Assembly (NCBI GenBank): GCA_964649615.1
Contig: CAZYPW010000006.1
Span: forward strand, 12,635 to 76,634
DNA: 64,000 nt
Reading direction: 5' to 3'
Origin: an uncultured Gammaproteobacteria bacterium
GTDB lineage: Bacteria > Patescibacteriota > Microgenomatia > Daviesbacterales > UBA10151
Position numbers and translations under genes: made by a program. Every line of letters starts with the position of its first letter. Within the stretch, counting starts at the first letter, position 1. Below are positions 16,404-64,000 of the stretch, in pieces. Below the pieces are notes generated by a model. The model saw nothing but the letters and a program-made list of their open reading frames with translations. It was not told where the DNA came from and did not search any database.

Positions 16404-17563
16404 ATAACTATTCTCTTTGTAGATTCTGCTAAATTAACTAGCAGTTCATAAGGAATGGTTTGGCAGATTTTAGCACAGTTTAAAATAGAATTTTTGCCCC
16501 TTGGATTATCGGAATAAACTATTACTTCTTGTCCAATATATGGTTTAGATACTTTGGTAATATCTATGGTGGTAATATTCATGCTGACTCTGCCTATGAT
16601 TGGACATTCAATACCATCAACAAAAACTATCCCTTTGTTAGATAACCTCAAATCAACTCCCTCATAGTAACCTAGTGGCAATATACCTACTGTCAGATTT
16701 CTTTTGGCAGTATAAAGACTCTCGTACCCTACCTTATCCCCTTTTTTTAGTTCTTTAATTTGAATAATCTTAGTTTTTAATTTTAAAACAGGTTTTAAAT
16801 CTACATTCCCACTTCGGATGTGGGAATTCGATATGCCATAGAGAGCAAGACCTACTCGGGCTATATTTACGTTGCAACCTCGAAGGTGGAATCGTAATAA
16901 TCCATCTGAGTTTTGGATATGAATATACTTTGGATTAAAACCAGCCTTCCTAACAATTTGTTGTACGTGCTTCAAATTGTTAATTTGCTTAAGATTCAAT
17001 CCATTCTTGGGATCATCTGCACAAGCAAAATGTGATATCAAACCTTCCACTTTTAAGTATTTTAGCCCTTTTAGTTCTTCTAAAAATAGTGGTAAATCTT
17101 TCATTTGAATGCCTTCTCTGCTCATACCAGTATCTACAAAAATATGAACACTACATTCTGGTTGATATTTACTTAAAACTTTAGCTGTTTTCAAATCATA
17201 TAAAGCAAAAGAAAAAGGCAGTTTTTTAACTTTAAAATTTTCAGGATTTGTATATCCCATTATTAAAATTTTAGTTTTAATCCTTGCTTTTAGTAATTCA
17301 TATGCTTCATATAAAGAATCAACACAAAAAAATGGTGCATTAACTTGGTCTAAAATTTTTGCTATCTCAACTATTCCATGCCCATATCCATTACTTTTTA
17401 TGACAGGGGCAACTTTAATTTTTTTAGTGCGCGAAGCGCGCGAGCTTTGCTCATTTAAAGAAGATAAATATTTGTAGTTATGAATTAAATTTGCTTTCGA
17501 CACCTCAATTAGATTTAAGGTTTGGTAATCTTTTTTAAATATTTTTAGAATTTTGCTTAACAT
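16400..17563 (-). CDS. alr: Alanine racemase
   Basis: PLP-lysine motif VIKSNGYGHG. Carries in-frame element insertions at 16806-16826, 16871-16890 and 17427-17447. Confidence 0.85.
   Translation of the reverse strand: MLSKILKIFKKDYQTLNLIEVSKANLIHNYKYLSSLNEQSSRASRTKKIKVAPVIKSNGYGHGIVEIAKILDQVNAPFFCVDSLYEAYELLKARIKTKILIMGYTNPENFKVKKLPFSFALYDLKTAKVLSKYQPECSVHIFVDTGMSREGIQMKDLPLFLEELKGLKYLKVEGLISHFACADDPKNGLNLKQINNLKHVQQIVRKAGFNPKYIHIQNSDGLLRFHLRGCNVNIARVGLALYGISNSHIRSGNVDLKPVLKLKTKIIQIKELKKGDKVGYESLYTAKRNLTVGILPLGYYEGVDLRLSNKGIVFVDGIECPIIGRVSMNITTIDITKVSKPYIGQEVIVYSDNPRGKNSILNCAKICQTIPYELLVNLAESTKRIVI
16806..16826. repeat. Family-1 palindrome
   Basis: In alr. Read as SHIRSGN. Confidence 0.9.
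16871..16890. repeat. Family-2 palindrome CAACCTCGAAGGTGG
   Basis: In alr. Read as FHLRGCN. Confidence 0.6.
17427..17447. repeat. Family-5-like GC hairpin GTGCGCGAAGCGCGCGAG
   Basis: In-frame in alr (SSRASRTKK). Confidence 0.6.
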
Positions 17564-29949: not shown

Positions 29950-30882
29950 ATGATTGTACTTTTAGGTTTTAGTTTGGGAATAGTTTTAGGTAGCTTTGTT
30001 AAGGCGCTAGCTGATAGAAGCCTATCTAATAAATCTTTTTGGGGAAGGTCGTACTGTTTAAATTGTAAGAAGAAATTACAATGGTACGACCTTTTTCCAA
30101 TACTTTCTTATCTAACTCTACAAGGCAGATGCAGATATTGTGGCAAAAAAATTGGGTTAGAGTATTTAGTGGTAGAAATTAGCATGGGAATATTAGTAGG
30201 ATTTCTGTTTTGGCAAAATCTGATTAATTTTCAATTTCTAATTTCTGCCTCCGAAGGAGGGGTGAATTATTTTCATTCAATTATCAATTATCAATTATCA
30301 ATATTTATCATTGATCTTCTGATTAAAATCTTTTTTATAAGTGTTTTAGTTGCTTTGGTATTGACAGATTTAAAGAAAATGTTAATCCCTGATCGGATAA
30401 TACTTCCAGCAATTACCCTAGGCTTTATCATGGCTGGATTGTTAGCCGCTTATAAGATTGGGTATTTATATTATCATCTATTAAATCATCCAGTAGGCAA
30501 ATATTTGCTTTTCCCCCATTCTGATTATTTTGGGCAACATGCCTTAGAATTATTGCATCCGTTTTTAACCGGTGTTTTTTCAGCTTTATTAATAGGTGGA
30601 TTTTTCTATCTTCTTATTATTATTACTAAAGGCAAAGGAATGGGTGGAGGGGATGTTAAACTGGGAGCATTCATAGGGCTAATGTTAGGTTTCCCCAACT
30701 CTTTGGTGGCTCTGATTTTGGCCTTTTTTTCTGGGGCAATAGTTTCTATACTACTGCTTGCATCAGGCAGGAAAAAAATTGGCCAGGTTATTCCCTTTGG
30801 GCCATTCTTAGTAATAGGGGCTTTAATTGCCCTTTTTTGGGGAGATAAAATATTTAACTGGTATATAAAGCTTGGGTCTTGA
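29950..30882 (+). CDS. pilD: Prepilin peptidase (A24 family)
   Basis: N-terminal CLNC...CRYC zinc motif. Eight TM segments. GGGDVKL catalytic Asp region. Confidence 0.85.
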   Translation: MIVLLGFSLGIVLGSFVKALADRSLSNKSFWGRSYCLNCKKKLQWYDLFPILSYLTLQGRCRYCGKKIGLEYLVVEISMGILVGFLFWQNLINFQFLISASEGGVNYFHSIINYQLSIFIIDLLIKIFFISVLVALVLTDLKKMLIPDRIILPAITLGFIMAGLLAAYKIGYLYYHLLNHPVGKYLLFPHSDYFGQHALELLHPFLTGVFSALLIGGFFYLLIIITKGKGMGGGDVKLGAFIGLMLGFPNSLVALILAFFSGAIVSILLLASGRKKIGQVIPFGPFLVIGALIALFWGDKIFNWYIKLGS

Positions 30883-32919: not shown

Positions 32920-33076
32920 GCTTTGGATATGCTACGCTAATCTTATGCCCACTAAGAGTTCAAAACTCAAAACTCAAAACTCAAAATTTTGGAAGAATTT
33001 ATATAATAAGTTTTCAAAGAAAACTACCAACACTTTTAACTTTAAACTTTTAACTTTTAACTTTTGGCGCAGCCAA

Positions 33077-40887: not shown

Positions 40888-41551
40888 GATTAGGCCTTAT
40901 GGCTTGTGTCTTTTCTATAGATTTTTCTTTTCGCCATTTAGCTATTTCAGCGTGGTTTCCAGAAAGCAAAACTTTGGGAACTTTATCTCCTTCAAAAATA
41001 TCTGGCCTTGTATACTGGGGATGTTCTAGCAGATGTGGATCAGAGAAAGATTCATCTAAAGTTGCCTGATCTTTTAAAACCCCATTAATAAGCCTGACTA
41101 CACTATCAACTATCACCATGGCAGGGATCTCTCCTCCTGTTAAAACATAATCACCTATGGAGATTTCCTCATCCACATATTTATCAATAAATCTTTGGTC
41201 CACCCCCTCATAGTGCCCACAAATAATGATGAGGTGATCTAGTTTAGATAATCTCCGGGCATCTTTTTGCTTATAGGGAGTTCCTGAGGCTGAAGTTAAA
41301 ATGACTTTTGACTTTTGACTTTTGACTTTTGACTTTTTCAGCGCAGCTGAAAGTATGTCTGCCCGAAGTAACATCCCTACTCCTCCTCCATAAACTCTTC
41401 CATCTACTACTTTGTGTTTCCCTTCCCCAAAATCTCTTAAATTTATAAGCTCAAATGAGACTTTTTTTTTAATTTGGGCAGCTTTTATGATACTGGAATT
41501 AAAGATTGGTTCAAAAACTTCTGGGAAGAGGGTGATAATTGATATTTTCAT
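40871..41551 (-). CDS. trmD: tRNA (guanine37-N1)-methyltransferase
   Basis: ISIITLFPE N-terminus and the SPOUT knot GGEIPAMVIVDSVVRLI. Contains an in-frame AAAAGTC heptamer x4 (41303-41337). Confidence 0.85.
   Translation of the reverse strand: MKISIITLFPEVFEPIFNSSIIKAAQIKKKVSFELINLRDFGEGKHKVVDGRVYGGGVGMLLRADILSAALKKSKVKSQKSKVILTSASGTPYKQKDARRLSKLDHLIIICGHYEGVDQRFIDKYVDEEISIGDYVLTGGEIPAMVIVDSVVRLINGVLKDQATLDESFSDPHLLEHPQYTRPDIFEGDKVPKVLLSGNHAEIAKWRKEKSIEKTQAIRPNLIQKD
41303..41337. repeat. GACTTTT x4 heptamer SSR
   Basis: In-frame in trmD (KKSKVKSQKSKV). Confidence 0.85.
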
Positions 41552-48872: not shown

Positions 48873-48893
48873 TTCCCACTTGACATGTGGGAA
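48873..48893. repeat. Family-1 palindrome variant B immediately 5' of the RAYT gene
   Basis: Lies between the stop at 48866 and the RAYT ATG at 48915. Confidence 0.9.
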
Positions 48894-49352
48894 CGTAGTT
48901 GGGACTATGGAATTATGGCAAATCCTCCTTTTGCTTCTGGCGAGTTTTATCATATTTATAACCGTGGTGTAGAAAAAAGAAAAATTTTTCTTGATAAGTG
49001 GGATTATTTAAGATTCTTAGAGACCCTAGATTTTTACCGCAAATCCCCCAACCCAATGAAACTATCGGATTTTAGAAGAGGTGTAATTAAACTTAAAAAG
49101 AATGAAGATCAGAAGGAAATAGTCAGAATTTATTGTTATTCTCTAATGCCGAATCACTTTCATCTGTTAGTTCAACAACTGGAAGAATCTGGAATTACTC
49201 AATTTATGAGAAAATTATCTGATAGTTATACCAGGTTTTTTAATACCAAGTATGAGAGGGTGGGTTCTCTTTTTCAGGGAAGCTTTAAGGCAAAATTAAT
49301 TGAAACTGATGAATATTTACTTCAGCTTTCAAAATATATTCATCGAAACGCG

Positions 49353-49373
49353 TTCCCACTTAAGATGTGGGAA
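49353..49373. repeat. Family-1 palindrome TTCCCACTTAAGATGTGGGAA inside the RAYT ORF
   Basis: Read as FPLKMWE. Confidence 0.85.
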
Positions 49374-49566
49374 GGTAAAGTTTATCCATATTCCTCCTAC
49401 GGGTATTATCTAAACGGGGAGAAACATCTATTCTGTGACACAGAATTTATAGGGGCATTTTTTTCTAAAACAAATCCTAAACTAAGCTATAAATCTTTTG
49501 TAGAGGAAACAGAGTTTGGGGATCCAATAGCAGTTTATAATCTCTCCATAGATAATGATGAATGCG

Positions 49567-49587
49567 TTCCCACATCGGATGTGGGAA
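49567..49587. repeat. Family-1 palindrome at the RAYT 3' end
   Basis: Encodes the C-terminal VPTSDVGS plus the stop. Confidence 0.9.
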
Positions 49588-49599
49588 GCTAAATAATAG

Positions 49600-52508: not shown

Positions 52509-54104
52509 ATGAATATGGATATTATTTCCAAGATTGAGAGGGATATTAAGGAGCTAAAATTTAAAGCGCAAAAACAAAATGTAGGTTATGTGAGTGAGAT
52601 TGGTGATGGGGTGGCAAAAATAGACGGGCTTTCTGATGTGCAATATTCTGAGCTTTTGGATTTTGGCTCCGGGGTTAGAGGACTGGCTCTTAATTTGGAA
52701 CAATACTCTGTTGGAGCTGTTATTTTTGGAGATTATACCAAAATTAAAGAAGGGGCTGAAGTTAAAACAACAGGCAAAATTTTGGAGGTGCCGGTTGGTG
52801 AAGCACTTGTTGGAAGAGTGGTTAACGGCTTAGGAGAACCAATTGATGGAAAAGGAGCTATTAAAGCTTCTGCCAAATATCCGGTTGAGAAAATTGCCAC
52901 GGGTGTAATTAGCAGGCAGTCTGTTAATACCCCGCTCCAGACAGGCATTAAAGCCATAGACAGCATGATTCCAATTGGCCGTGGGCAGAGGCAGTTAATT
53001 ATTGGGGATAGAAATACGGGTAAAACAACTATTGCGATTGATACGATTGTAAACCAAGGGAGAGTTAATAGTTCACAGTTAGTTAGTTCATCGCCAAAAG
53101 CAAATCGAACTAACGAATTAACCAATCACGATAAACAAGTTATATGTATCTATGTGGCTATTGGCCAGAAAACTTCTAAAATTGCTCAATTGGTGGCTAA
53201 GTTAGAAGAACACGATGCCATGAAACACACTATCATTGTGGCTGCTTCTGCATCTGACAGCGCTACTATGCAATATATTGCCCCATATGCAGGAGTAGCT
53301 ATGGGTGAGTATTTTATGGACTTGGGCAAAGATGCTTTGATTATTTATGATGATTTGAGCAAACATGCCTGGGCTTACAGACAGGTGTCTTTGCTTCTGC
53401 GAAGGCCATCTGGCCGTGAGGCTTATCCCGGGGATGTGTTTTATTTGCATTCCAGGTTGCTTGAGCGGGCAGCCAGATTAAACAAAGATTACGGTGGCGG
53501 ATCGCTGACAGCTTTGCCTATTATAGAAACTCAGGCCGGAGATGTGTCTGCTTATATTCCAACTAATGTTATTTCTATCACAGACGGGCAGATTTATCTG
53601 GAATCTGATTTATTTAACTCCGGATTCAGGCCTGCTTTAAACGTTGGAATCTCTGTATCCAGAGTTGGAGGAGCAGCGCAAACAAAAGCTATGAAGTCGG
53701 TTGCAGGACAATTAAGGTTAGATTTAGCCCAGTTTAGAGCCTTACAGGCTTTTGCCCAATTTTCCTCTGATTTGGATCCGGAAACCAGATCCAGGATTGA
53801 AAGAGGCAGAAGAATTCAGGAGATACTAAAACAACCTCCTTACTCCCCTGTTAGCTTAGAAGAGCAGGTTGTTTCTTTATGGGCAGTTATAAACGGGCAT
53901 CTGGACGAGATTCCGGTTGAAAATATCCGTGATTTTGAACAAAAGTATCTAGAATACCTTAAATTAAGAGAGAAAAAGCTGCTTTCTGAGATAGCTTCTA
54001 AAAAAGAGTTGGACGAGAAGATGGTAAAAGAGCTAGAAAAGGTTACTAAGAGTTTTGTGAGTACTTTCGCAAAATCAAATATCAAAAATAAAAATGAAAA
54101 ATGA
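52509..54104 (+). CDS. atpA: F0F1 ATP synthase subunit alpha
   Basis: [16 protein letters not shown]-loop and a [42 protein letters not shown] block. Contains a roughly 26-aa in-frame insertion at 53061-53138. Confidence 0.95.
53078..53123. repeat. Family-4 inverted repeat GTTAGTTAGTTCATC...CGAACTAAC
   Basis: Inside atpA. The insert encodes [17 protein letters not shown]. Confidence 0.75.
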
Positions 54105-54141
54105 CAGATTAAAATGTAAAATGTTTACTTAAATTAAAACT

Positions 54142-56372
<2,231 letters not shown>

Positions 56373-56374
56373 AG

Positions 56375-57319
56375 CTATTTAGTAACTGTGCTTGTTACTG
56401 CCCTTGCAGAATCTTTTAGCATATTCCAATATTTTCTTGCCATATGGTCTGCAGATCTTTCAGCTTGGAAAGAGTAATAAACTTTTTCTGCTTCAATATT
56501 AGTTCTTACAAGATTCGTTGCATCCACAGGAGTTCTTATAGAATGCAACATTTCTCTAATTCTCCTGATTGGAGTAATCATACTGTCATAATCCACAACT
56601 TGTAGGATCTGTCTTACCGATGAATCTAATTCCCTTTCAGCATTAGGGCTATTTGGGTGAAATGAATTATAAGCAAGATATGGAAAGTTTCCAGAGATCC
56701 AAAGTCTGGAACTAGTATTAGGAGACATATAACTTAACCAAGCCTTCATCTTATCTGCTTTCCTTCGAATTAAGCGGTCTCCAAAACCCTTTCCTGCAGT
56801 TATGTGATCGGTAGGCACGCTTACTACAGTGTCATATACGGCGAATCCAAAGACGGTTCTAGCCTCCAAAATTCTCTGCGCAGGATGAACTCCAGATAGC
56901 AACATTTGTTGCTGGGATTGATTGGCTTGTGCTTCTATCCTAGCCTTATAATTTTGAGATAATTCTACCTGGTATCTGTCGGCTCTTTCTTGATACTGTT
57001 TCAGTTGGTCGCCCCATCTCCTCCAAACTTCGTAATTAGAGAACTCGTGGGTTAACTCGTCTCTATATAAGCTGGGATCAAAAGAGGGTAAATGTATTCC
57101 AATATGACTTTGGTTATCTACTGTATTTACTGCTGGCATAAAAAACATGCCAGTAAAATCATCTGGAAGGTCCTTTCCTTGAAGAAGCTCTGGTTTAGCC
57201 GTGGCAAATTTAAGCCTAGTGTATTCTTCCCTATCGGATGTTGCACTGACAGTTAAATCAGTTGTTTTATAAGTAGCCTTTAACTCATCTATGATTGTTT
57301 GAATATCTCTTTCAGGCAT
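56375..57319 (-). CDS. Hypothetical protein
   Basis: 314-aa ORF on the opposite strand immediately after the atpD stop. No recognisable motif. Confidence 0.45.
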   Translation of the reverse strand: MPERDIQTIIDELKATYKTTDLTVSATSDREEYTRLKFATAKPELLQGKDLPDDFTGMFFMPAVNTVDNQSHIGIHLPSFDPSLYRDELTHEFSNYEVWRRWGDQLKQYQERADRYQVELSQNYKARIEAQANQSQQQMLLSGVHPAQRILEARTVFGFAVYDTVVSVPTDHITAGKGFGDRLIRRKADKMKAWLSYMSPNTSSRLWISGNFPYLAYNSFHPNSPNAERELDSSVRQILQVVDYDSMITPIRRIREMLHSIRTPVDATNLVRTNIEAEKVYYSFQAERSADHMARKYWNMLKDSARAVTSTVTK

Positions 57320-57407
57320 AAATTTATTACAAAGTATACCATAATTCTTTCCTTAAACTACCTTCCCACGCTTCATATCTTCTTAAAGTTAAACAAGATC
57401 CTTCTTT

Positions 57408-57432
57408 GTGCCTCAACCTTCGAGGTTGCAAC
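57408..57432. repeat. Family-2 element TTCTTTGTGCCTCAACCTTCGAGGTTGCAACC
   Basis: Palindrome CAACCT-TCG-AGGTTG. Left flank of the atpD-fragment copy. Confidence 0.8.
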
Positions 57433-57486
57433 CTATTTTTCCGGCAGAAAAGGAAAATACGTGCCGATTAAAGAAACAATGAAAAT

Positions 57487-57514
57487 GTGCCTCAACCTTC
57501 GAGGTTGCAGGCTA
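57487..57514. repeat. Family-2 element TGCCTCAACCTTCGAGGTTGCAGGCTAAA
   Basis: Right flank of the atpD-fragment copy. Confidence 0.8.
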
Positions 57515-57520
57515 AACATT

Positions 57521-57880
57521 CTACGGAATATCTGACATTAAAGGCATTCCCAGATGAGTTTTAATTTCATCAATTTCTCTTTTGTTTCTGGAATGGAACA
57601 GTCCCTCTTTGTCTCTAATTCCTTTAACATCCATATGAAGATTTTCTATATCTCCTCTGGCTGCATCAACATTTTCACTCATTTCCTTTACATCTTTTTT
57701 AAGACCATCGACATCTTCCCTAAGAGCATTCACATCTCCCCTTGCTTCCTTAATCTCCTTTTTAACTGTATCAAGTCCTTCTTCAACATTCCCAAGTCTT
57801 TTATCTATCGGTTTTAATTCCTCTTTGACTATAGTGGTAACTTCTTCTTTAATTATTTGACGAAATTGTTTTGGATCCAT
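57521..57880 (-). CDS. Coiled-coil protein with repeated DV..L..DV motifs
   Basis: 119 aa, with periodic EARGDVNALREDVDGLKKDVKEMSENVDAARGDIENLHMDVKGI repeats. Confidence 0.45.
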   Translation of the reverse strand: MDPKQFRQIIKEEVTTIVKEELKPIDKRLGNVEEGLDTVKKEIKEARGDVNALREDVDGLKKDVKEMSENVDAARGDIENLHMDVKGIRDKEGLFHSRNKREIDEIKTHLGMPLMSDIP

Positions 57881-57980
57881 GAATTAATTTTAATACTGAC
57901 CTATATGGAAAACAATATAGCTTTTGTACTCCAGTTAAGCAATATGTTCAAAGACGCTATCAAGATGAAATGAAACCACG

Positions 57981-58001
57981 TTCCCACATCGGATGTGGGA
58001 A
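57981..58001. repeat. Family-1 palindrome, intergenic copy
   Basis: Lies within the atpD/atpC island. Confidence 0.9.
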
Positions 58002-58463
58002 TATGGATGAAGTAAGTTATTCTTCAATATAAACAAATTGGCCTTTTTCATCAAATTTTATGGATTTAAACAGATTAAAGAACCCGTCTCTTCCTAAAAT
58101 TGGAATATTTTGTTTAACACTGAAGTCTGCATCTGTTTCATAACTTTTATTTCCCAACCAAATCTGATCCAGAATCCAGTAAAGCATCAAATTTGGGGAA
58201 ATCGGAGGAACATATGAATATCAAGTTATTTTAGACATTACATTGATAAATGACCATCAAAAGGTGGAACATAATGAAGAATAACCTCATCCTTCTTTTT
58301 TCCAGTTAATCTTTTGAGTAAAGAATCCAATGATTGTGTTGAATTAACTACCCTTGTTCTTTTTTTGTCAAGAGCAACCCATTTATTCTCATAGTTTAAA
58401 AGGAAGCATGACTCCAATCTTTCTACATGATTGGGACCATTGATGAGGTAAAGGAATAACTAT

Positions 58464-58943
58464 TTACCCTCTTTTAGGCGGGTTAAAAGATGGATTGTCT
58501 GGCAAAACACCCGCTTCCAAGTATCGAACATTGATAGATAAGCCATTAGCTATTAAAATTTTTTGTAAGTCATGTATTCCTCTTTTAATCTTGCCATTTT
58601 CTAAAGCTGATAAGTAAGCTTTAGTTATAGGGGGACCAGACCTTTTTGCTAACTCTGTAAGTGAAAGAGCTCTCTCATTTCTCCATGCTCTTACAACTAG
58701 GCCTGGAGAGTAATGTGAGCCATGGATTTGTAAACTTCTATTCATAAAGTCTTCGTCTTGAGGAAAAAGTCTAGCATTCTCAATAAATCTTCCTAATAGG
58801 ATGATTTCTTCTTCTAAATTGCTATGATATCGCTCTGGATAACGTTGGATAATATATGATACTCCCTCTAGAAAATACCTGGTTTGACCTGGAGATAACT
58901 GATCTAGTTCCCTTGTTATAGCATGTTCTAATTCGTTAAACAT
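58464..58943 (-). CDS. XRE-family HTH domain protein
   Basis: C-terminal LSLTELAKRSGPPITKAYLSALENGK helix-turn-helix. Confidence 0.55.
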   Translation of the reverse strand: MFNELEHAITRELDQLSPGQTRYFLEGVSYIIQRYPERYHSNLEEEIILLGRFIENARLFPQDEDFMNRSLQIHGSHYSPGLVVRAWRNERALSLTELAKRSGPPITKAYLSALENGKIKRGIHDLQKILIANGLSINVRYLEAGVLPDNPSFNPPKRG

Positions 58944-59012
58944 AGGAATAATTTTAACAGAAAATTAGGAATAAATCAAACTATGGGACTTTTGGAGTTT
59001 GTGCTTTTTGAA

Positions 59013-59318
59013 TTAAAATTTCAACCCCGCCTTGGTTTTAATTCTATTTCCTTTTTGTCCCACTACACCATATGATGTATTAGACATCTCCATAAACCCC
59101 ACATCAATTTTATAATTTTTGCTACCAATTTTAATACGCAGTGTATGGATATAAATATTTTCAGGGAAACCTACAATTCCACTAACTTGTAATTTTATGC
59201 CTTTTAATAAATTAATCCCTAAAACTTCAGTTACTTGTGCATTAAAGATACAGATATCTGCACCTGAGTCAATTAGTACTTCATATGGGGATAACGGGAC
59301 GTAAAGTATCAGTACCAA
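59013..59318 (-). CDS. Retropepsin-like aspartic protease (clan AA)
   Basis: VLIDSGADICIF contains the D-S-G-A catalytic signature of retroviral-type aspartyl proteases. 101 aa. Confidence 0.6.
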   Translation of the reverse strand: MVLILYVPLSPYEVLIDSGADICIFNAQVTEVLGINLLKGIKLQVSGIVGFPENIYIHTLRIKIGSKNYKIDVGFMEMSNTSYGVVGQKGNRIKTKAGLKF

Positions 59319-59340
59319 ATTCCTTATATTTAAACTTCAT

Positions 59341-59392
59341 TTCTTTGTGCTTCAACCTTCGAGGTTGCAGGCTAGAGGTTGCAGGCTAAAAT
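59341..59392. repeat. Family-2 element with duplicated GAGGTTGCAGGCTA arm
   Basis: TTCTTTGTGCTTCAACCTTCGAGGTTGCAGGCTAGAGGTTGCAGGCTAAA, between the retropepsin gene and the Cys-rich gene. Confidence 0.8.
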
Positions 59393-59446
59393 TTCATCAC
59401 TATATTCTCGGTCTCGAATATAATTTTTACTAACAAATGGTGCAGA

Positions 59447-59692
59447 TTAAGCTGCCGGTAAAACTGGTTCTCCTCCTCCTGTACTAACTGTTACTGGTGG
59501 ACAGCTACATTTGCTTTCAGCCTCATTACAGGGGACGCATTTTTTAACACAATGCTCTCCTCCACAAGCATGTTGTTCATCATGCATATCTGACTCTGCC
59601 CCGCACATATCACATTTATACCCTGTGGTACCTTGGCCACACCTGGTACACATAGCAGCTGTAGGATTATTATTTCGATCCATTTTTATCAC
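59447..59692 (-). CDS. Cys/His-rich metallothionein-like small protein
   Basis: 81 aa with 14 Cys in CxxC/CxC arrangements plus His (CTRCGQ, KCDMCGAES, HACGGEHCVKKCVPC, CSCPP). GC content above local background. Confidence 0.5.
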   Translation of the reverse strand: MIKMDRNNNPTAAMCTRCGQGTTGYKCDMCGAESDMHDEQHACGGEHCVKKCVPCNEAESKCSCPPVTVSTGGGEPVLPAA

Positions 59693-59744
59693 CTCCTTGT
59701 TTCTATGGTAACTAATAGGGTCTGTATGGTCAATATCTCAATTA

Positions 59745-60107
59745 CTAGACAAGATGGGTAAAGGCACCATCTAGGTGAAGATAATAAGCTTCAACTTCTA
59801 AATTTGGATACTTTCCCAAAACCTTAGCTCTGGCATTTTTTAAATCCTCTGCATGTTTTTGGGGAGAAGACTCTTTCCCATAAGCCCCACAATCTTCGTG
59901 GTTTATCAGGATTACTTTTTTAATGTGATGCAGCTTTACCGCAATATCAATTTGCCCCAAGATGACCTCTAAATTTTTCACTCCACCTGCCAAAGCCACC
60001 CGATCAAAAATTTTAGGCCTGATATGTTGAGAGATCCATTTATTTATGGTCTTTTGAAACCGAAAGTCGATACAAGTAACAATTATGCCTTCTGTTTGGT
60101 GATTCAT
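59745..60107 (-). CDS. Beta-carbonic-anhydrase-like protein (CxDxR ... HxxC zinc-site spacing), truncated fold
   Basis: VTCIDFR and INHEDCGAY lie 58 residues apart, matching the beta-CA Cys/Asp/Arg and His/Cys ligand spacing. Only 120 aa. Confidence 0.35.
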   Translation of the reverse strand: MNHQTEGIIVTCIDFRFQKTINKWISQHIRPKIFDRVALAGGVKNLEVILGQIDIAVKLHHIKKVILINHEDCGAYGKESSPQKHAEDLKNARAKVLGKYPNLEVEAYYLHLDGAFTHLV

Positions 60108-60132
60108 AATATGATATTATACAATATGTTTT

Positions 60133-60543
60133 ATGGCTCAGTTGCATTTAAAAGTTGTTACTCCGGAAAAACTTTTGCTGGATGAAGAGGTTTCTCAAGT
60201 TAATGTGTCCACTGAACAAGGCCAAATAGGGATTTTGCCAAATCATGCAAACTTAATGGCCAAGTTAGAGCCAGGTGAGCTGGTTATAAAAAAGGGTGGG
60301 AAAGTGGATACTTTGGCTGTGGGAGATGGATTTTTGCAGGTTGCAAATAATACCCTGACAGTGATGACTGATCTGGCTACATATGCTGTGGATATAGATG
60401 AAAAGACTGTTGAGGAGGCTAAAAAAAGAGCTGAGCAGGCTTTAGAACAAACTTTATCGGATGAAGAATATGCAGAAACATTTGCCAATTTACAAAAATC
60501 CCTGGCCCAGCTTCATGTTAAAAGAAGACACAGAGTAAGGTAA
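60133..60543 (+). CDS. atpC: F0F1 ATP synthase subunit epsilon, displaced from atpD
   Basis: QGQIGILPNHANLMAKLEPGELVIKKGG...GDGFLQVANNTLTVMTDLA...DIDEKTVEEAKKRAEQAL is the typical epsilon beta-sandwich plus C-terminal helix. Confidence 0.8.
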   Translation: MAQLHLKVVTPEKLLLDEEVSQVNVSTEQGQIGILPNHANLMAKLEPGELVIKKGGKVDTLAVGDGFLQVANNTLTVMTDLATYAVDIDEKTVEEAKKRAEQALEQTLSDEEYAETFANLQKSLAQLHVKRRHRVR

Positions 60544-60559
60544 TTGATACAATTACTAC

Positions 60560-61486
60560 ATGGTAAAAGCACCTGATCTTTCGATAATAATTCTTAACTA
60601 TAATGTTAAGGAACTATTACTCAATTGTTTAGAGTCTATTTTTAAAAACAAGGGTAAGGAGGATAAGTGGCAGGTAGTTGTGGTGGATAATGCTTCAATA
60701 GACGGCTCAGTAGAAGCAGTTAAACAACTACGTTCCCACATGTCAAGTGGGAACACAGTTGATATTATAGAAAACAGGGAAAATATGGGATTTGCCAATG
60801 GTAATAATGTGGCTATTCCTAAAGTTAAAGCGCCTGTAGTTTTATTTTTAAATCCAGATACCAAAATTGTGGGAGATGTGATTCAAAAATGTTTAGATAA
60901 ATTGCTTTCTAATCCAGATCTCGGGGCAATTAGCCCAAGAGTAGAATTGCCCGATGGCAGATTGGATTACTCCTGTCACAGAGGTTTCCCTACTCCCTGG
61001 AATTCTTTGATGTATTTTTCAGGAATTTCAAAGTTATTTCCTAAAATTAAATTATTCTCAGGGTACACTGCTTCATATTTAGATACTCAGACAGAACATG
61101 AAATAGATTGTATTACTGGAGCTTTTTTGATGGTTAGAAAAATTGCTGGGGATCAAATTCACTGGTGGGATAAGGATTATTTTTTTAATGGTGAAGATAT
61201 TGAATTTTGTTTTTCTTTAAAAGAAAAGGGTTGGGAAATTTATTATTACCCAAAAGTAAAAATAATCCACTACAAGGGTTCTTCTTCAGGATTGTGGTCT
61301 ACTGCTAAAATTCAAGTTTCTAAAGAATCCAGGTTGAAATCCGCAAAACATTCCACAGGAGCCATGAGAATTTTTTATATGAAGCATTATTATAAAAAAT
61401 ATCCGGTTTTTTTCAGGGACTTGGTTTTGCTGGGAATAAAGTCGCTGGAGCATTACAGAAAGGCAAAAATATGGATCTCTCGGTAA
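60560..61486 (+). CDS. Glycosyltransferase family 2
   Basis: LSIIILNYNVKELL, VVDNASIDGS, and a DxD-like region. In-frame palindromic element at 60733-60753. Confidence 0.8.
   Translation: MVKAPDLSIIILNYNVKELLLNCLESIFKNKGKEDKWQVVVVDNASIDGSVEAVKQLRSHMSSGNTVDIIENRENMGFANGNNVAIPKVKAPVVLFLNPDTKIVGDVIQKCLDKLLSNPDLGAISPRVELPDGRLDYSCHRGFPTPWNSLMYFSGISKLFPKIKLFSGYTASYLDTQTEHEIDCITGAFLMVRKIAGDQIHWWDKDYFFNGEDIEFCFSLKEKGWEIYYYPKVKIIHYKGSSSGLWSTAKIQVSKESRLKSAKHSTGAMRIFYMKHYYKKYPVFFRDLVLLGIKSLEHYRKAKIWISR
60733..60753. repeat. Family-1 palindrome variant B
   Basis: In the GT2 gene. Read as SHMSSGN. Confidence 0.9.
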
Positions 61487-62370
61487 TTATTTTAAGTTAT
61501 AATACTAAGGAAATAACGGATGAATGTTTAAATAGACTTCAGCAATCAGTCGCCAGCTGTCAGACAAAATTAAAAAATAAAATAGAAGTAATTGTTTTGG
61601 ATAATGCATCCAGTGACGGGTCTTTGGAAATAATCAAGCAGAATCACCCCTGGGTAGAATTGATAGAATCCAAAGAAAATACCGGTTTTTCTAAGGGTAA
61701 CAATTTAGCAATAAAACAGTCCATCAACCCGTATGTTTTATTTCTTAACTCTGATGCCTATGTGGAAAATGATACCCTGGAAAAGGCTATGCAGTGTTTT
61801 AAAAATCCTGATTGTGACGCTTTAGGCCCAAAATTAGTTTTTGAGAATGGGGACTTTCAGCCATCAGCCGGTAATTTACCAAATCCTTTTAATATTCCTC
61901 TTTGGATTTTGGGATTATCTTTGATTCCAGGTATAAATAAGCTAAATTCCTACCATCCAAAGCATAAAGAATTTTTTAATAAGATGAGACAGGTTGGTTG
62001 GGTGACCGGGGCTTTTTTTATGCTTAGGAAAAAGGTTTTAGATAAAGTAGGCTTATTTGATGAAAATTTATTTATGTATAGTGAAGAAATTGAGCTTTGC
62101 AAAAGGATTAAGAACGCAGGATTTAAAATTTGGTATATTCCAACGATTATCGTTACCCATCTTCACGCTGCTTCATCTAGTTTTGACACCTCCCTTGCAT
62201 TTATAAATGAACTAAAGGGCCTTAAATATTATTTTGGCAAATACTATCCTTCTTGGTATTTTTTAGTCAAATTATTTTTAATATTGGGTTTGATTTTAAG
62301 AGTTATAGCTTTTTCGCTCCTAAAACCTTCAAGAGCCAGGGCGTACATAAAAGGTTTATCAGTTATATGA
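61471..62370 (+). CDS. Glycosyltransferase family 2
   Basis: LSVIILSYNTKEIT...VLDNASSDGS. Confidence 0.8.
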   Translation: MDLSVIILSYNTKEITDECLNRLQQSVASCQTKLKNKIEVIVLDNASSDGSLEIIKQNHPWVELIESKENTGFSKGNNLAIKQSINPYVLFLNSDAYVENDTLEKAMQCFKNPDCDALGPKLVFENGDFQPSAGNLPNPFNIPLWILGLSLIPGINKLNSYHPKHKEFFNKMRQVGWVTGAFFMLRKKVLDKVGLFDENLFMYSEEIELCKRIKNAGFKIWYIPTIIVTHLHAASSSFDTSLAFINELKGLKYYFGKYYPSWYFLVKLFLILGLILRVIAFSLLKPSRARAYIKGLSVI

Positions 62371-64000
62371 AATTAGCAATTATTACTGTTAATTATAATG
62401 GAAAAGATGATAGTCTAGAGTTTTTAGGTTCCTTAAAAAAACTACGAACAACACACCGCCCCTTCGGGGCAACGAACTACGAACTACGAACTATATTAGT
62501 GGATAATGCATCAAGCGATGAATCAGTTTCTGCTATTCATAAGCAATTTCCTGAAGTGGATATTTTACAAACTGGTTCTAATTTAGGATTTTCCGGAGGG
62601 TTTAATAAAGGTATAGAATACGGTCAAATCTGGGGAGCAGATTATTTCCTACTAATAAATAATGATTGCTTAATTAAAGATTCTGGTTTATTAGATGAGT
62701 TAATTAAAACATTAAAATCAGATGAAAAAATTGGTTTAGTTTCTCCGAAGATTTATTTTGAAAAAGGATATGAATTTCACAAGAATAGATATTCTAAACA
62801 GGATTTAGGTAAAGCGATTTGGTTTGCCGGAGGAGAATTTGACTGGAATTTTGTGGGAAATAAACACAGAGGAATAGACGAAGTTGATTCTGGAAAATAT
62901 GATTTAGTAGAGCAACAGAATATTTTTTCCGGTGCTTGTGTACTTATAAAAAAAGAAGTATTTGAAAAAGTTGGCATGTTTAATGAAGATTATTTTTTAT
63001 ATTTTGAGGACTCTGAGTTTGCCAAAAGAGCAACTGATGCTGGATTTAAAACTTATTATAATGGCCAGGTTTCCATCTATCATAAAGTCTCCCAGTCAAC
63101 TGGAATTGGTTCTAAAATTACAGATTATTATCACACCAGAAACAGGTTAATTTTTGGAATGAAGTATGGAGGTTTAAGAACTAAATTCGCATTACTCAGA
63201 GAAGCCATAAAATTATTCTTATTTGGTAGGCCCGTTCAAAGGCAAGGAATATTAGATTTTTATTTAGGAATAAGAAGAGGTGCCAACGTAATCCACCTGG
63301 AGGGTGGTCTAGGTTGGCACCCTCAAGTAGAATATCCGCTTAAACTATCTATAGGTATAGTAAACTATAACACTGCTGATTTAACCAAAAAATTATTAGA
63401 CAGCATTTTTGAAACACGTTCCCACATGTCAAGTGGGAATACGGATGATGTGGAAGTAATTGTCCTAGACAATGGTGATATTGATCCCTGTAAAGACAAA
63501 ATAAAAGAATATTTGCCTAGGATAAAATATCTTAAAAATGAAGAAAATGAGGGATTTTCCAAAGGTTATAACAAAACAATTAGATACTCTTTGGGTGAGT
63601 ATTATTTAATGCTAAATTCTGATATTGAAGTATTGGAGAATGGGTTATCTGAATTAGTAAGGGTGGAAGATGAGTTTAAAGGTGAAGCAGTGTTGGGTGG
63701 GAAATTAGTTTTTCCAGATTTAAGCAAGCAAGATTCTGCATTCCATTTACCCACTTTAACTGGAGCATTTAAGGAATATTTTTTAGCAAAAAAAGGATCT
63801 TATTTTATGTATCAGCCTGAAAGTGATAAACCCTCAAAAGTGGATGGGTTGGTAATGGCTTGTTTGTTAATTCCTAAGAAAGTATTACAAAAAGTAGGGC
63901 TTTTGGATGAAGGAACTTTTATCTTTTTTGAGGATATTGAATATTGCAGGAGGTTGAAAAAATTTGGTGTACCACTATATTTTGTACCATCTGCCAAATT
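62367..64000 (+). CDS. Tandem two-domain GT2 glycosyltransferase, 3'-partial (runs off the window; absent from the ORF track for that reason)
   Basis: ATG overlaps the upstream TGA. The first GT2 domain is MKLAIITVNYNG...LVDNASSDES. The second is LSIGIVNYNTADL...VLDNGD. The frame stays open to nt 64000. Repeat insertions at 62456-62492 and 63419-63439. Confidence 0.7.
   Translation, partial: MKLAIITVNYNGKDDSLEFLGSLKKLRTTHRPFGATNYELRTILVDNASSDESVSAIHKQFPEVDILQTGSNLGFSGGFNKGIEYGQIWGADYFLLINNDCLIKDSGLLDELIKTLKSDEKIGLVSPKIYFEKGYEFHKNRYSKQDLGKAIWFAGGEFDWNFVGNKHRGIDEVDSGKYDLVEQQNIFSGACVLIKKEVFEKVGMFNEDYFLYFEDSEFAKRATDAGFKTYYNGQVSIYHKVSQSTGIGSKITDYYHTRNRLIFGMKYGGLRTKFALLREAIKLFLFGRPVQRQGILDFYLGIRRGANVIHLEGGLGWHPQVEYPLKLSIGIVNYNTADLTKKLLDSIFETRSHMSSGNTDDVEVIVLDNGDIDPCKDKIKEYLPRIKYLKNEENEGFSKGYNKTIRYSLGEYYLMLNSDIEVLENGLSELVRVEDEFKGEAVLGGKLVFPDLSKQDSAFHLPTLTGAFKEYFLAKKGSYFMYQPESDKPSKVDGLVMACLLIPKKVLQKVGLLDEGTFIFFEDIEYCRRLKKFGVPLYFVPSAK
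62456..62492. repeat. GC hairpin CGCCCCTTCGGGGCAACG plus CGAACTA x3 tandem
   Basis: In-frame in the GT2 gene (HRPFGATNYELRT). Reverse complement of the TTCGTAG array. Confidence 0.7.
63419..63439. repeat. Family-1 palindrome variant B
   Basis: In the two-domain GT2 gene. Read as SHMSSGN. Confidence 0.9.

Follow-up and report, generated by a model that had tools for sequence, protein, structure and literature searches.

The window analysed here, the whole 64-kb stretch of metagenome-assembled Candidatus Daviesbacteria (CPR/Microgenomates) DNA, taken from a contig of 91.7 kb, carries an F-type ATP synthase operon on its plus strand, in which atpD and atpC are separated by a 3.7 kb island (Table 1). 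All island ORFs are encoded on the minus strand, in the order ORF314, ORF119, a 57-aa remnant ORF, DUF5678, HTH_3, an Asp_protease_2-like gene, a Cys-rich ORF and Pro_CA_2. Positions 55610–57584 and 57557–63152 are reproduced at 100% by Logan contigs from several SRA runs of one sample series, all contigs of which break at 57557–57586; with identical assemblies obtained from several runs, the structure is not an assembly artefact, and a chimeric origin was ruled out. Neither atpD nor ORF119 had an exact match in the contig index, and no known RNA family was identified within 54000–61000 (Rfam).

Table 1. Features of the atpD–atpC locus and of related elements in the window, with coordinates, strand and supporting evidence
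Feature	Coordinates	Strand	Evidence
Partial and diverged pal2, in frame within alr (FHLRGCNV); pal1 copy at a distance of ~40 nt	16866–16897	-	14-nt exact run CCTTCGAGGTTGCA; nhmmer E 4e-4
Live atpD (ATP synthase beta, 455 aa, G-type C-terminus)	55005–56372	+	Pfam ATP-synt_ab E 6e-76; 100% to Ca. Daviesbacteria NCBI protein
Recombinant 3' segment of atpD, of ancestry other than that of the first 1185 nt	56190–56372	+	Informative sites vs L022/L007; identity to L007
A0, live-gene counterpart of relic A1	56237–56289	+	Repeat search and base count
ORF314, conserved helical protein between the live atpD end and the relic	56375–57319	-	AF2 pLDDT 83
pal2 copy 1, core 57409–57430, left flank homologous to that of copy 3	57382–57435	+	Sequence comparison
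Relic A1, probable left piece of a displaced atpD 3' end	57436–57488	+	46/53 to 56237–56289; tblastn E 4.5e-7
pal2 copy 2, core 57488–57509 plus GGCTAAA; 5 nt from ORF119 stop	57486–57516	+	DNA hairpin -8.2 kcal/mol, z -3.7
ORF119 (coiled coil), belonging to the 914-nt block	57521–57880	-	87.7% nt identity to L007 10650–10844; Pfam coiled-coil noise only
pal1 (REP-like, other family) inside the inserted block	57974–58013		Homologous position in L007 9858–9898, L010 9852–9892
Remnant of L007 ORF142 homologue, internally deleted	58017–58202	-	84–86% to L007 9926–10071, 10193–10234
DUF5678 gene	58238–58417	-	Pfam DUF5678 E 1.8e-5; 87.9% to L007 10323–10413
Relic B1, probable right piece of a displaced atpD 3' end, T type (..KHDS, 10-nt deletion, QSFYMIGTIDEVKE, stop)	58403–58459	+	Repeat search; translation; tblastn; gapped alignment
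HTH_3 (XRE-type) regulator directly past the relic stop codon	58464–58943	-	Pfam HTH_3 E 1.7e-8
pal2 copy 3, core 59348–59369 (1 mismatch), unsplit module form	59341–59395	+	Sequence comparison
Pro_CA_2 gene 59745–60107 (-) and atpC 60133–60543 (+), far border of the variable island	59745–60543		Pfam

A near-copy of the atpD 3' end had been described in the initial annotation at a distance of 1.15 kb downstream of the gene. The copy, relic A1, is confirmed: 46 of its 53 bases are identical to those of its live counterpart A0 (87%, above the 70% below which the resemblance was to be attributed to chance), and the atpD C-terminus used as a tblastn query finds a match at 57419–57487 (E 4.5e-7). 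The corresponding stretch of atpD, formerly placed at 56233–56283, is however displaced by ~4–6 nt from the real match, and A1 starts 1065 nt past the atpD stop, a shorter distance than that claimed. A perfect core of 25 nt, CCGGCAGAAAAGGAAAATACGTGCC, is shared by A1 and A0. A1 covers atpD codons 412–428, of which seven are changed, five synonymously and two conservatively (T>S, I>M); the predominance of synonymous changes suggests that A1 and A0 diverged as working atpD genes in separate lineages, and such a substitution pattern would not be expected from recent copying within one genome. Homology does not extend leftwards into the adjoining palindrome, where an in-frame comparison gives 8 of 21 identities, close to random. 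A short string, TTCGAGGTTG, resembles atpD TTCGTGGGTG at 8 of 10 positions, but no matching sequence follows it.

A second, collinear atpD fragment, B1, had been overlooked in the initial annotation. The last 39 nt of atpD are paired by repeat search with 58415–58453, which translates as QSFYMIGTIDEVKE followed by a stop codon, and gapped alignment extends the fragment to its full length as AAGCATGACTC, a 10-nt deletion, and CAATCTTTCTACATGATTGGGACCATTGATGAGGTAAAGGAATAA. B1 is found with a T-type tblastn query (E 0.002), its gapped alignment scores highest against the T-type relatives L010 and L022 (..GTIEEVK tail), and CATGACTCC is common to B1 and these two relatives and absent from the live atpD; the predicted B1-encoded tail is the alternative C-terminus found in related Daviesbacteria. 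B1 covers atpD codons ~438–455 and lies on the same strand as A1, in collinear order. Between the two fragments ~25 nt of the gene are missing, their place being occupied by 914 nt (57489–58402) that comprise ORF119, the ORF142 remnant and the DUF5678 gene. Given this collinearity, and with no palindrome beside B1, A1 and B1 are read as pieces of one displaced 3' end and not as cargo of an element. As part of the explanation favoured below, which as a whole we hold with moderate confidence, they would be the two surviving pieces of a former T-type atpD 3' end (..FYMIGTIDEVKE, stop), a relic of ~110 nt in total, itself split, that lies promoter-less downstream of atpD on the same strand. The HTH_3 gene that follows is possibly the original downstream neighbour of the old atpD tail.

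The live atpD is itself a mosaic. Informative sites shared with L022 (T type) and with L007 (G type) stand at 123:99 to the left of ~56190 and at 4:35 to the right (Fisher p 6e-8, uncorrected for the breakpoint scan), and identity to L007, 77.1% across the first 1185 nt, reaches 90.2% in the final 177 nt (a segment of ~180 nt), the largest jump among all pairs compared. Control triplets among the relatives are also mosaic, indicating that mosaicism is general among these genes and that a breakpoint of this kind is not unique to the window genome. Two tail types, each a multi-residue block, were defined on the 120 closest atpD homologues: a G type, K[LM]F..FYMIGG[LPV]EDLK, and a T type, K[GA]F..FYM[VK]GTI[ED]EVK. 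Mapped onto a neighbour-joining tree of the same 120 homologues built from residues 1–405 only, tail type requires 20 Fitch steps, against a mean of 34.7 and a minimum of 28 after shuffling, indicating that it is partly inherited but repeatedly swapped; the scattered C-terminal types and the mosaic control triplets together suggest that swapping of 3' ends is recurrent in the clade. We infer the direction of transfer, that is, which of the two tails is foreign, from the mosaic test and from modest N-terminal affinities, P0005 and P0007, both of G type, coming nearly as close as the T-type proteins. The closest atpD relatives, at ~91% protein identity (none >92%), have unrelated island contents, and neither an empty site nor an intermediate state was found.

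No integrase, transposase or recombinase domain was detected in the island ORFs (Pfam, PHROGs), and a phage origin of the island was discarded with no similarity to phages by blastn. ORF314, for which no Pfam or PHROG match was obtained and whose all-helical AF2 model (pLDDT 83) has no PDB fold match, was rejected on these grounds as a hidden recombinase. Its homologue in L013 (62%) adjoins atpD, and a third, more distant homologue lies away from atpD. L007 lacks ORF314, and a single L007-like donor is therefore not demonstrated. Identity to L007 is 84–88% across ORF119, the ORF142 remnant and DUF5678, as against 79% for atpD and 74% for Pro_CA_2, and the closer affinity of the accessory genes than of the housekeeping flanks points to recent transfer. 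The order of the block in L007 is pal1, ORF142, DUF5678, ORF119, and that in the window is ORF119, pal1, ORF142 remnant, DUF5678, a circular permutation of the former. The TTG start and first five codons of the DUF5678 gene are the antisense of B1, with TTG opposite a CAA codon of the relic, implying that the original 5' end of this gene was lost at the joint, where an AA(A/G)G microhomology is possible.

A1 is enclosed by two exact copies of a 22-nt palindrome, pal2 (TGCCTCAACCTTCGAGGTTGCA; 24 nt with TG), for which 0 matches are expected in shuffles. Both copies had been thought to carry GGCTAAA; the palindrome is indeed exact on both sides (57409–57430 and 57488–57509), but GGCTAAA follows the right copy alone. 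Copy 1 is followed instead by ACCTA, which yields AGGTTGCAACCT, a perfect 12-nt palindrome that differs by two bases from the canonical AGGTTGCAGGCT. The reappearance of the element at 59341–59392, also described in the initial annotation, corresponds to a genuine third copy with one mismatch in its core, which holds a perfect 14-nt tandem duplication (59361–59388); the copy ascribed to alr does lie in frame within an intact alr ORF, but is diverged, inverted and partial, with an exact run of 14 nt. The right flank GGCTAAA is common to copies 2 and 3, and ~27 nt of left flank are common to copies 1 and 3, on which basis copies 1 and 2 look like a single module of the copy 3 type. The interruption of this module consists of ACCTA and A1 (a 57-nt filler), with duplication of the 24-nt hairpin (TGTGCC..TGCA). 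The two edges of A1 coincide exactly with the two bases of one and the same hairpin; A1 ends, and copy 2 begins, with a common TGT (3 nt), and the left joint (GCA/ACCTA/TTTTTCC) has no clear microhomology. Slippage or template switching at the hairpin is indicated by the split module, the shared TGT, AGGTTGCAACCT and the 14-nt duplication. The left flank shared by copies 1 and 3 overlaps the apparent 5' end of the Asp-protease-like gene.

Within the 64 kb, pal2 is represented by three full copies, all in direct orientation within one 2-kb stretch, and one partial copy. Elsewhere, exact pal2 was found at one locus in 185,579 species genomes and at two metagenome loci, one of which (L017) is maybe a chance match; the location of the latter inside pheS was set aside as evidence, a chance 21-mer match being possible given the size of the collection. 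Another Daviesbacteria genome (L012) carries exact pal2 twice, and the metagenome contig L016 carries it 1 kb downstream of its atpD, between two opposite-strand genes, so that further copies of the palindrome do exist, as the initial annotation required. Degenerate versions are present in the atpD–atpC gap of L007, L010 and L022, and another lies upstream of the L013 homologue of ORF314; the lineages with pal2-like modules in this gap number at least five (the window, L016, L007, L010 and L022). The GGCTAAA side lies 0–5 nt from the stop codon of an opposite-strand gene in four of five clear cases, and the next gene begins 30–90 nt beyond the hairpin. Judged from these sequence contexts, pal2 is a conserved, low-copy intergenic hairpin module of gene boundaries, not a proven mobile element, and it may serve as an mRNA 3' stabiliser or as an operator. 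A promoter and terminator scan of the pal2–A1–pal2 unit gave nothing above chance, and hand-read -35/-10 matches around pal2 are poor, except for those of the degenerate L007 version. The abundant palindrome of the window is pal1, with 15 copies in 64 kb, which flanks a RAYT-like Y1 transposase gene (48885–49592) and which agrees with REP/REPIN–RAYT systems in both copy number and RAYT flanking.

The explanation that we consider the most probable, albeit with moderate confidence, is illegitimate recombination anchored by homology, or template switching, with a hairpin base as the site of the joints and C-terminal displacement as the outcome. DNA of another Daviesbacteria lineage, carrying a G-type atpD 3' end and at least ORF314, would have recombined into the chromosome, probably after natural transformation, with one end paired by homology inside atpD (crossover near 56190) and the other end, which had no homology, fused by illegitimate recombination to a point of the resident gene ~47 nt beyond, the joint lying at the base of the pal2 hairpin. 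Such an event would leave atpD intact with a new tail, and the old tail would be pushed ~1.2 kb downstream as dead DNA. The L007-like block of ORF119, ORF142 remnant and DUF5678, likewise ending in a pal2 hairpin, would have replaced ~25 nt midway along the old tail, either in a later event or within the same event, by template switches from the donor to resident A1, back to the donor and on to resident B1. The one-event and two-event versions are about equally likely; the single-event version would account for two pal2 copies that sum to one module and for the L007-like character of new tail and block alike. In either version pal2 would have acted as a break or stall point and not as a transposon. 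As with the direction of transfer, we infer the route of uptake and the number of events from the arrangement of the locus; Patescibacteria are reported to carry islands as well as genes for competence and recombination, and their gene exchange is mostly with one another (PMC12455944).

A different history of A1 is conceivable, though unlikely, in which ~57 nt were copied from a T-type atpD tail into a single pal2 between ORF314 and ORF119, as a filler or templated insertion at a replication intermediate stalled or broken at the hairpin, which was then re-copied, such that A1 would not be in its original place. This would be consistent with the flanks that copies 1 and 2 share with copy 3 (~27 nt on the left, GGCTAAA on the right), with a duplicated unit of exactly the 24-nt hairpin, with the TGT microhomology at the joint, with the 14-nt slippage duplication in copy 3, and with the conversion of AGGTTGCAGGCT into the perfect palindrome AGGTTGCAACCT by ACCTA, as fold-back copying would produce; joints at both bases of one hairpin would also follow more naturally if a single pal2 had received an insertion than if two joints had formed independently. 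A T-type template would, however, be needed in the same cell, presupposing a displaced tail or a donor, and it would be a coincidence that A1 and B1 are nearly contiguous, in order and on one strand, unless all arose in one multi-switch event, at which point the filler merges with the displacement favoured here. The initial annotation had proposed a footprint of recombination or element-mediated capture at the insertion site. The recombination footprint is supported by the A1 edges at the hairpin bases; capture by the element is opposed by the collinear B1 without a palindrome, by a pal2 that is not demonstrably mobile and by the lack of transposase or integrase in the island. Direct-orientation hairpins are the end architecture of IS200/IS605 elements, and a mobile REP/MITE-like or IS200/IS605-type pal2, two direct copies of which captured and could mobilise the atpD fragment, would also be in keeping with the RAYT-like Y1 transposase gene in the window and with partial copies inside coding sequences (alr; possibly a pheS-like ORF in L017). 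Its probability is nevertheless very low, with a RAYT gene flanked by pal1 and not pal2, full copies confined to one 2-kb stretch and scarce elsewhere, and no second pal2–A1–pal2 unit. Whether other copies carry captured gene fragments was a question raised in the initial annotation, and none was found at either L012 copy, at L016, at copy 3 or at the degenerate copies of L007, L010, L013 and L022. A weaker form of capture may still apply, the split pair being consistent with a template switch at the hairpin.

The direct repeats A0 and A1, with their identical 25-nt core, bracket a complete gene end and ORF314, as attL and attR might if a site-specific integrative element had entered the atpD 3' end with its own replacement tail, and the ORF314 homologue again lies beside atpD in L013. 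The elements e14 and phage 21 integrate into icd in this way, duplicating the 3' end of the gene, and islands in tRNA genes are a comparable case; as in icd, the inserted DNA brings a slightly divergent 3' end, the gene remains functional and the old end is left as a pseudogene fragment. Unlike those elements, the island has no phage genes or phage similarity, and no integrase, recombinase or transposase is encoded in its ORFs (Pfam, PHROGs), ORF314 being all-helical without a PDB fold match and having a third homologue away from atpD. The crossover is also not of att type inside the repeat, since L007-like sites dominate from ~56190, 47 nt upstream of A0, and the identical core is the most conserved coding stretch in all relatives. 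An e14/icd-like element is weakened by the missing integrase and by the ancestry switch outside the repeat, and appears improbable. Comparably improbable is a dedicated, integrase-less cassette site in the atpD–atpC gap of Daviesbacteria, at which small opposite-strand genes, each with a conserved hairpin module (pal2 and others) at its end, would be excised, circularised and reinserted at hairpins, through the action in trans either of the Y1/RAYT protein, whose gene lies 6 kb upstream, or of a structure-specific nuclease of the host, with pal2–A1–pal2 as a minimal cassette of captured atpD DNA; if this were true, the circular permutation of ORF119, ORF142 and DUF5678 relative to L007 would be the trace of a circular intermediate. 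A functional role for the unit, as a minus-strand small RNA antisense to atpD mRNA or as a CRISPR-like repeat–spacer–repeat, is the least probable of the readings. The neighbouring genes are all transcribed on the minus strand, from which the relic is probably transcribed in antisense, and its complementarity to atpD mRNA (25 nt perfect, 46/53 overall) lies between stable hairpins, but promoter and terminator signals do not exceed chance, the z-score of the RNA fold is only -1.9, and the arrangement is present in one lineage alone. A CRISPR mini-array was rejected: the window holds no array, two repeats only being present around A1, the 'spacer' matches the self gene at 87% and not 100%, other pal2 copies are solitary, and B1 has no repeats.

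Orphaned 3' regions in rhs and T6SS loci are attributed to homology-facilitated illegitimate recombination (HFIR) and C-terminal displacement (PMC5361080), and orphan 3' modules are described for rhs, cdiA and T6SS effector–immunity loci (Jackson et al. 2009, as cited in PMC5361080; Kirchberger et al. 2017, PMC5361080). The displacement favoured here resembles that of rhs, cdiA and T6SS genes in its constant 5' part, in a new 3' end of other ancestry that arrives with downstream gene(s), in old 3' fragments left promoter-less downstream in the same orientation, in the proposed pairing of a homologous anchor with an illegitimate joint, and in 3' types scattered over the phylogeny and discordant with the gene tree. 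It differs in affecting a core housekeeping gene, the tails of which are equivalent variants and not toxin domains, with no immunity logic, in its short and split relic and in its CPR host. Orphan atpD fragments, a further mark of such displacement, were found at 0 of 9 other distinct Daviesbacteria loci, a small sample, and displacement with a leftover tail is therefore not demonstrably recurrent. HFIR has been studied in naturally transformable bacteria (de Vries & Wackernagel 2002; Prudhomme et al. 2002; Meier & Wackernagel 2003, as cited in PMC5361080), in experiments also cited in PMC3240628. The present locus would share with these a net gain of foreign genes, a short microhomology (TGT) at one joint, and a one-sided anchor, which the ancestry switch inside atpD would fit, the far side being non-homologous at the relic joints a short distance downstream. 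It departs from them in joints that coincide with a palindrome, one of them without clear microhomology, and in an extra patch of recipient DNA between duplicated hairpins. As in REP/BIME elements with their associated RAYTs (PMC2817692, PMC3116915), pal2 is a short, GC-richer palindrome near gene ends that can sit in frame inside genes, with a RAYT-like gene in the same window; unlike them, it is low-copy and without inverted pairing, and the RAYT gene is flanked by pal1. Nor does the island conform to an integron cassette array, being bounded by atpD and atpC without an integrase, and by inspection pal2 does not fit the RYYYAAC/GTTRRRY attC cores.

Recombination scars of this kind are known, and the present one, although it lies in a housekeeping gene, does not represent a new kind of system. 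The scar shows a streamlined CPR genome gaining accessory genes inside an essential operon without breaking the operon, the incoming DNA bringing its own gene end and the old end remaining as a datable scar. The atpD–atpC gap holds different genes in every relative examined, over 0.6 to 6.8 kb, including methyltransferases, HicAB, HTH proteins and unknowns; together with tail swapping and the recurrent hairpin, this variability identifies the gap as a recombination hotspot, a wider pattern that may matter more than the 50-bp copy itself. The gap thus offers a concrete locus for studies of gene flow among uncultured Patescibacteria, and the atpD 3' end is not a clean phylogenetic marker in the Daviesbacteria clade. 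At the far border of the gap, the order Pro_CA_2–atpC is also found in L007, L010 and L018.

The interval between atpD and atpC (56373-60132) is a hypervariable hotspot within the ATP synthase operon, clade-wide: its counterparts in Daviesbacteria relatives and metagenome contigs (loci L005, L007, L009, L010, L013, L016, L022 and L023) hold 0.6-6.8 kb of accessory genes, mostly on the opposite strand, which differ in every Daviesbacteria relative examined. Small additional ORFs are present in the neighbouring atpG-atpD interval of L022 and L023.

In the block formed by ORF119, a copy of the palindrome pal1, the remnant of ORF142 and the DUF5678 gene (57521-58417), the order is a circular permutation of that in L007 (9858-11048); this arrangement fits either passage through a circular intermediate or a tandem duplication with later deletions. 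In each of five different SRA runs the Logan contigs stop, on both sides, at 57557-57586, a sequence with no repeat within the window, and these shared ends may reflect structural variation at the population level or a repeated copy in another part of the genome. Further along the island, the Asp_protease_2-like gene may be frameshifted, because an ATG situated 7 nt from copy 3 of pal2 (the low-copy hairpin module flanking the atpD relic) is out of frame with the ORF. The 5' region of the same ORF has a homologue in the sequence flanking pal2 copy 1 on the left (57382-57408), which suggests a partial duplicate of the gene start upstream of ORF314. An unrelated metagenome contig (L017, 412-438) also carries a 27-nt pal2-like sequence within a pheS-like reading frame, although given the size of the collection this may be a chance match.

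The second palindrome family of the window, pal1 (TTCCCAC-N7-GTGGGAA), is abundant, with 15 copies in 64 kb at sites spread over 9611-63439. Copies are closely associated with an IS200-like/RAYT-like Y1_Tnp gene, homologues of which occupy the equivalent position, upstream of the atp operon, in L007 and L010; together, pal1 and this gene resemble a REP/RAYT system, here in the genome of a CPR bacterium. In-frame copies also lie inside intact protein-coding genes (atpG, alr and the RAYT gene), reminiscent of the Rickettsia palindromic elements. No pal1 was found in L010 atpG, the sole L010 blastn match to the atpG copy lying elsewhere in the locus.

Coordinates of mobile-element, palindrome, motif and repeat features (window positions unless a locus is named)
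Feature	Position	Remark
Y1_Tnp (IS200-like/RAYT-like) gene	48885-49592	pal1 copies directly before, within and at 3' end
In-frame pal1, atpG	54441-54461	reads ..ASHIGSGNV..
In-frame pal1, alr	16806-16826	reads ..SHIRSGNV..
In-frame pal1, RAYT gene	49567-49587	
Asp_protease_2-like ORF	59013-59341	start codon TTG
TTGGAGTTTGCC motif	L007 ~10578; L010 ~10556; L016 ~2540	
Heptanucleotide tandem repeats	41302-41337; 32960-32986; 30277-30302; 33032-33065; others	

Several lineages share a further conserved motif in the intergenic stretches that separate island genes, consisting of TTGGAGTTTGCC with a hairpin after it. The window also contains, at scattered sites, several heptanucleotide tandem repeats that are perfect or nearly so, such as TGACTTT x5.1.
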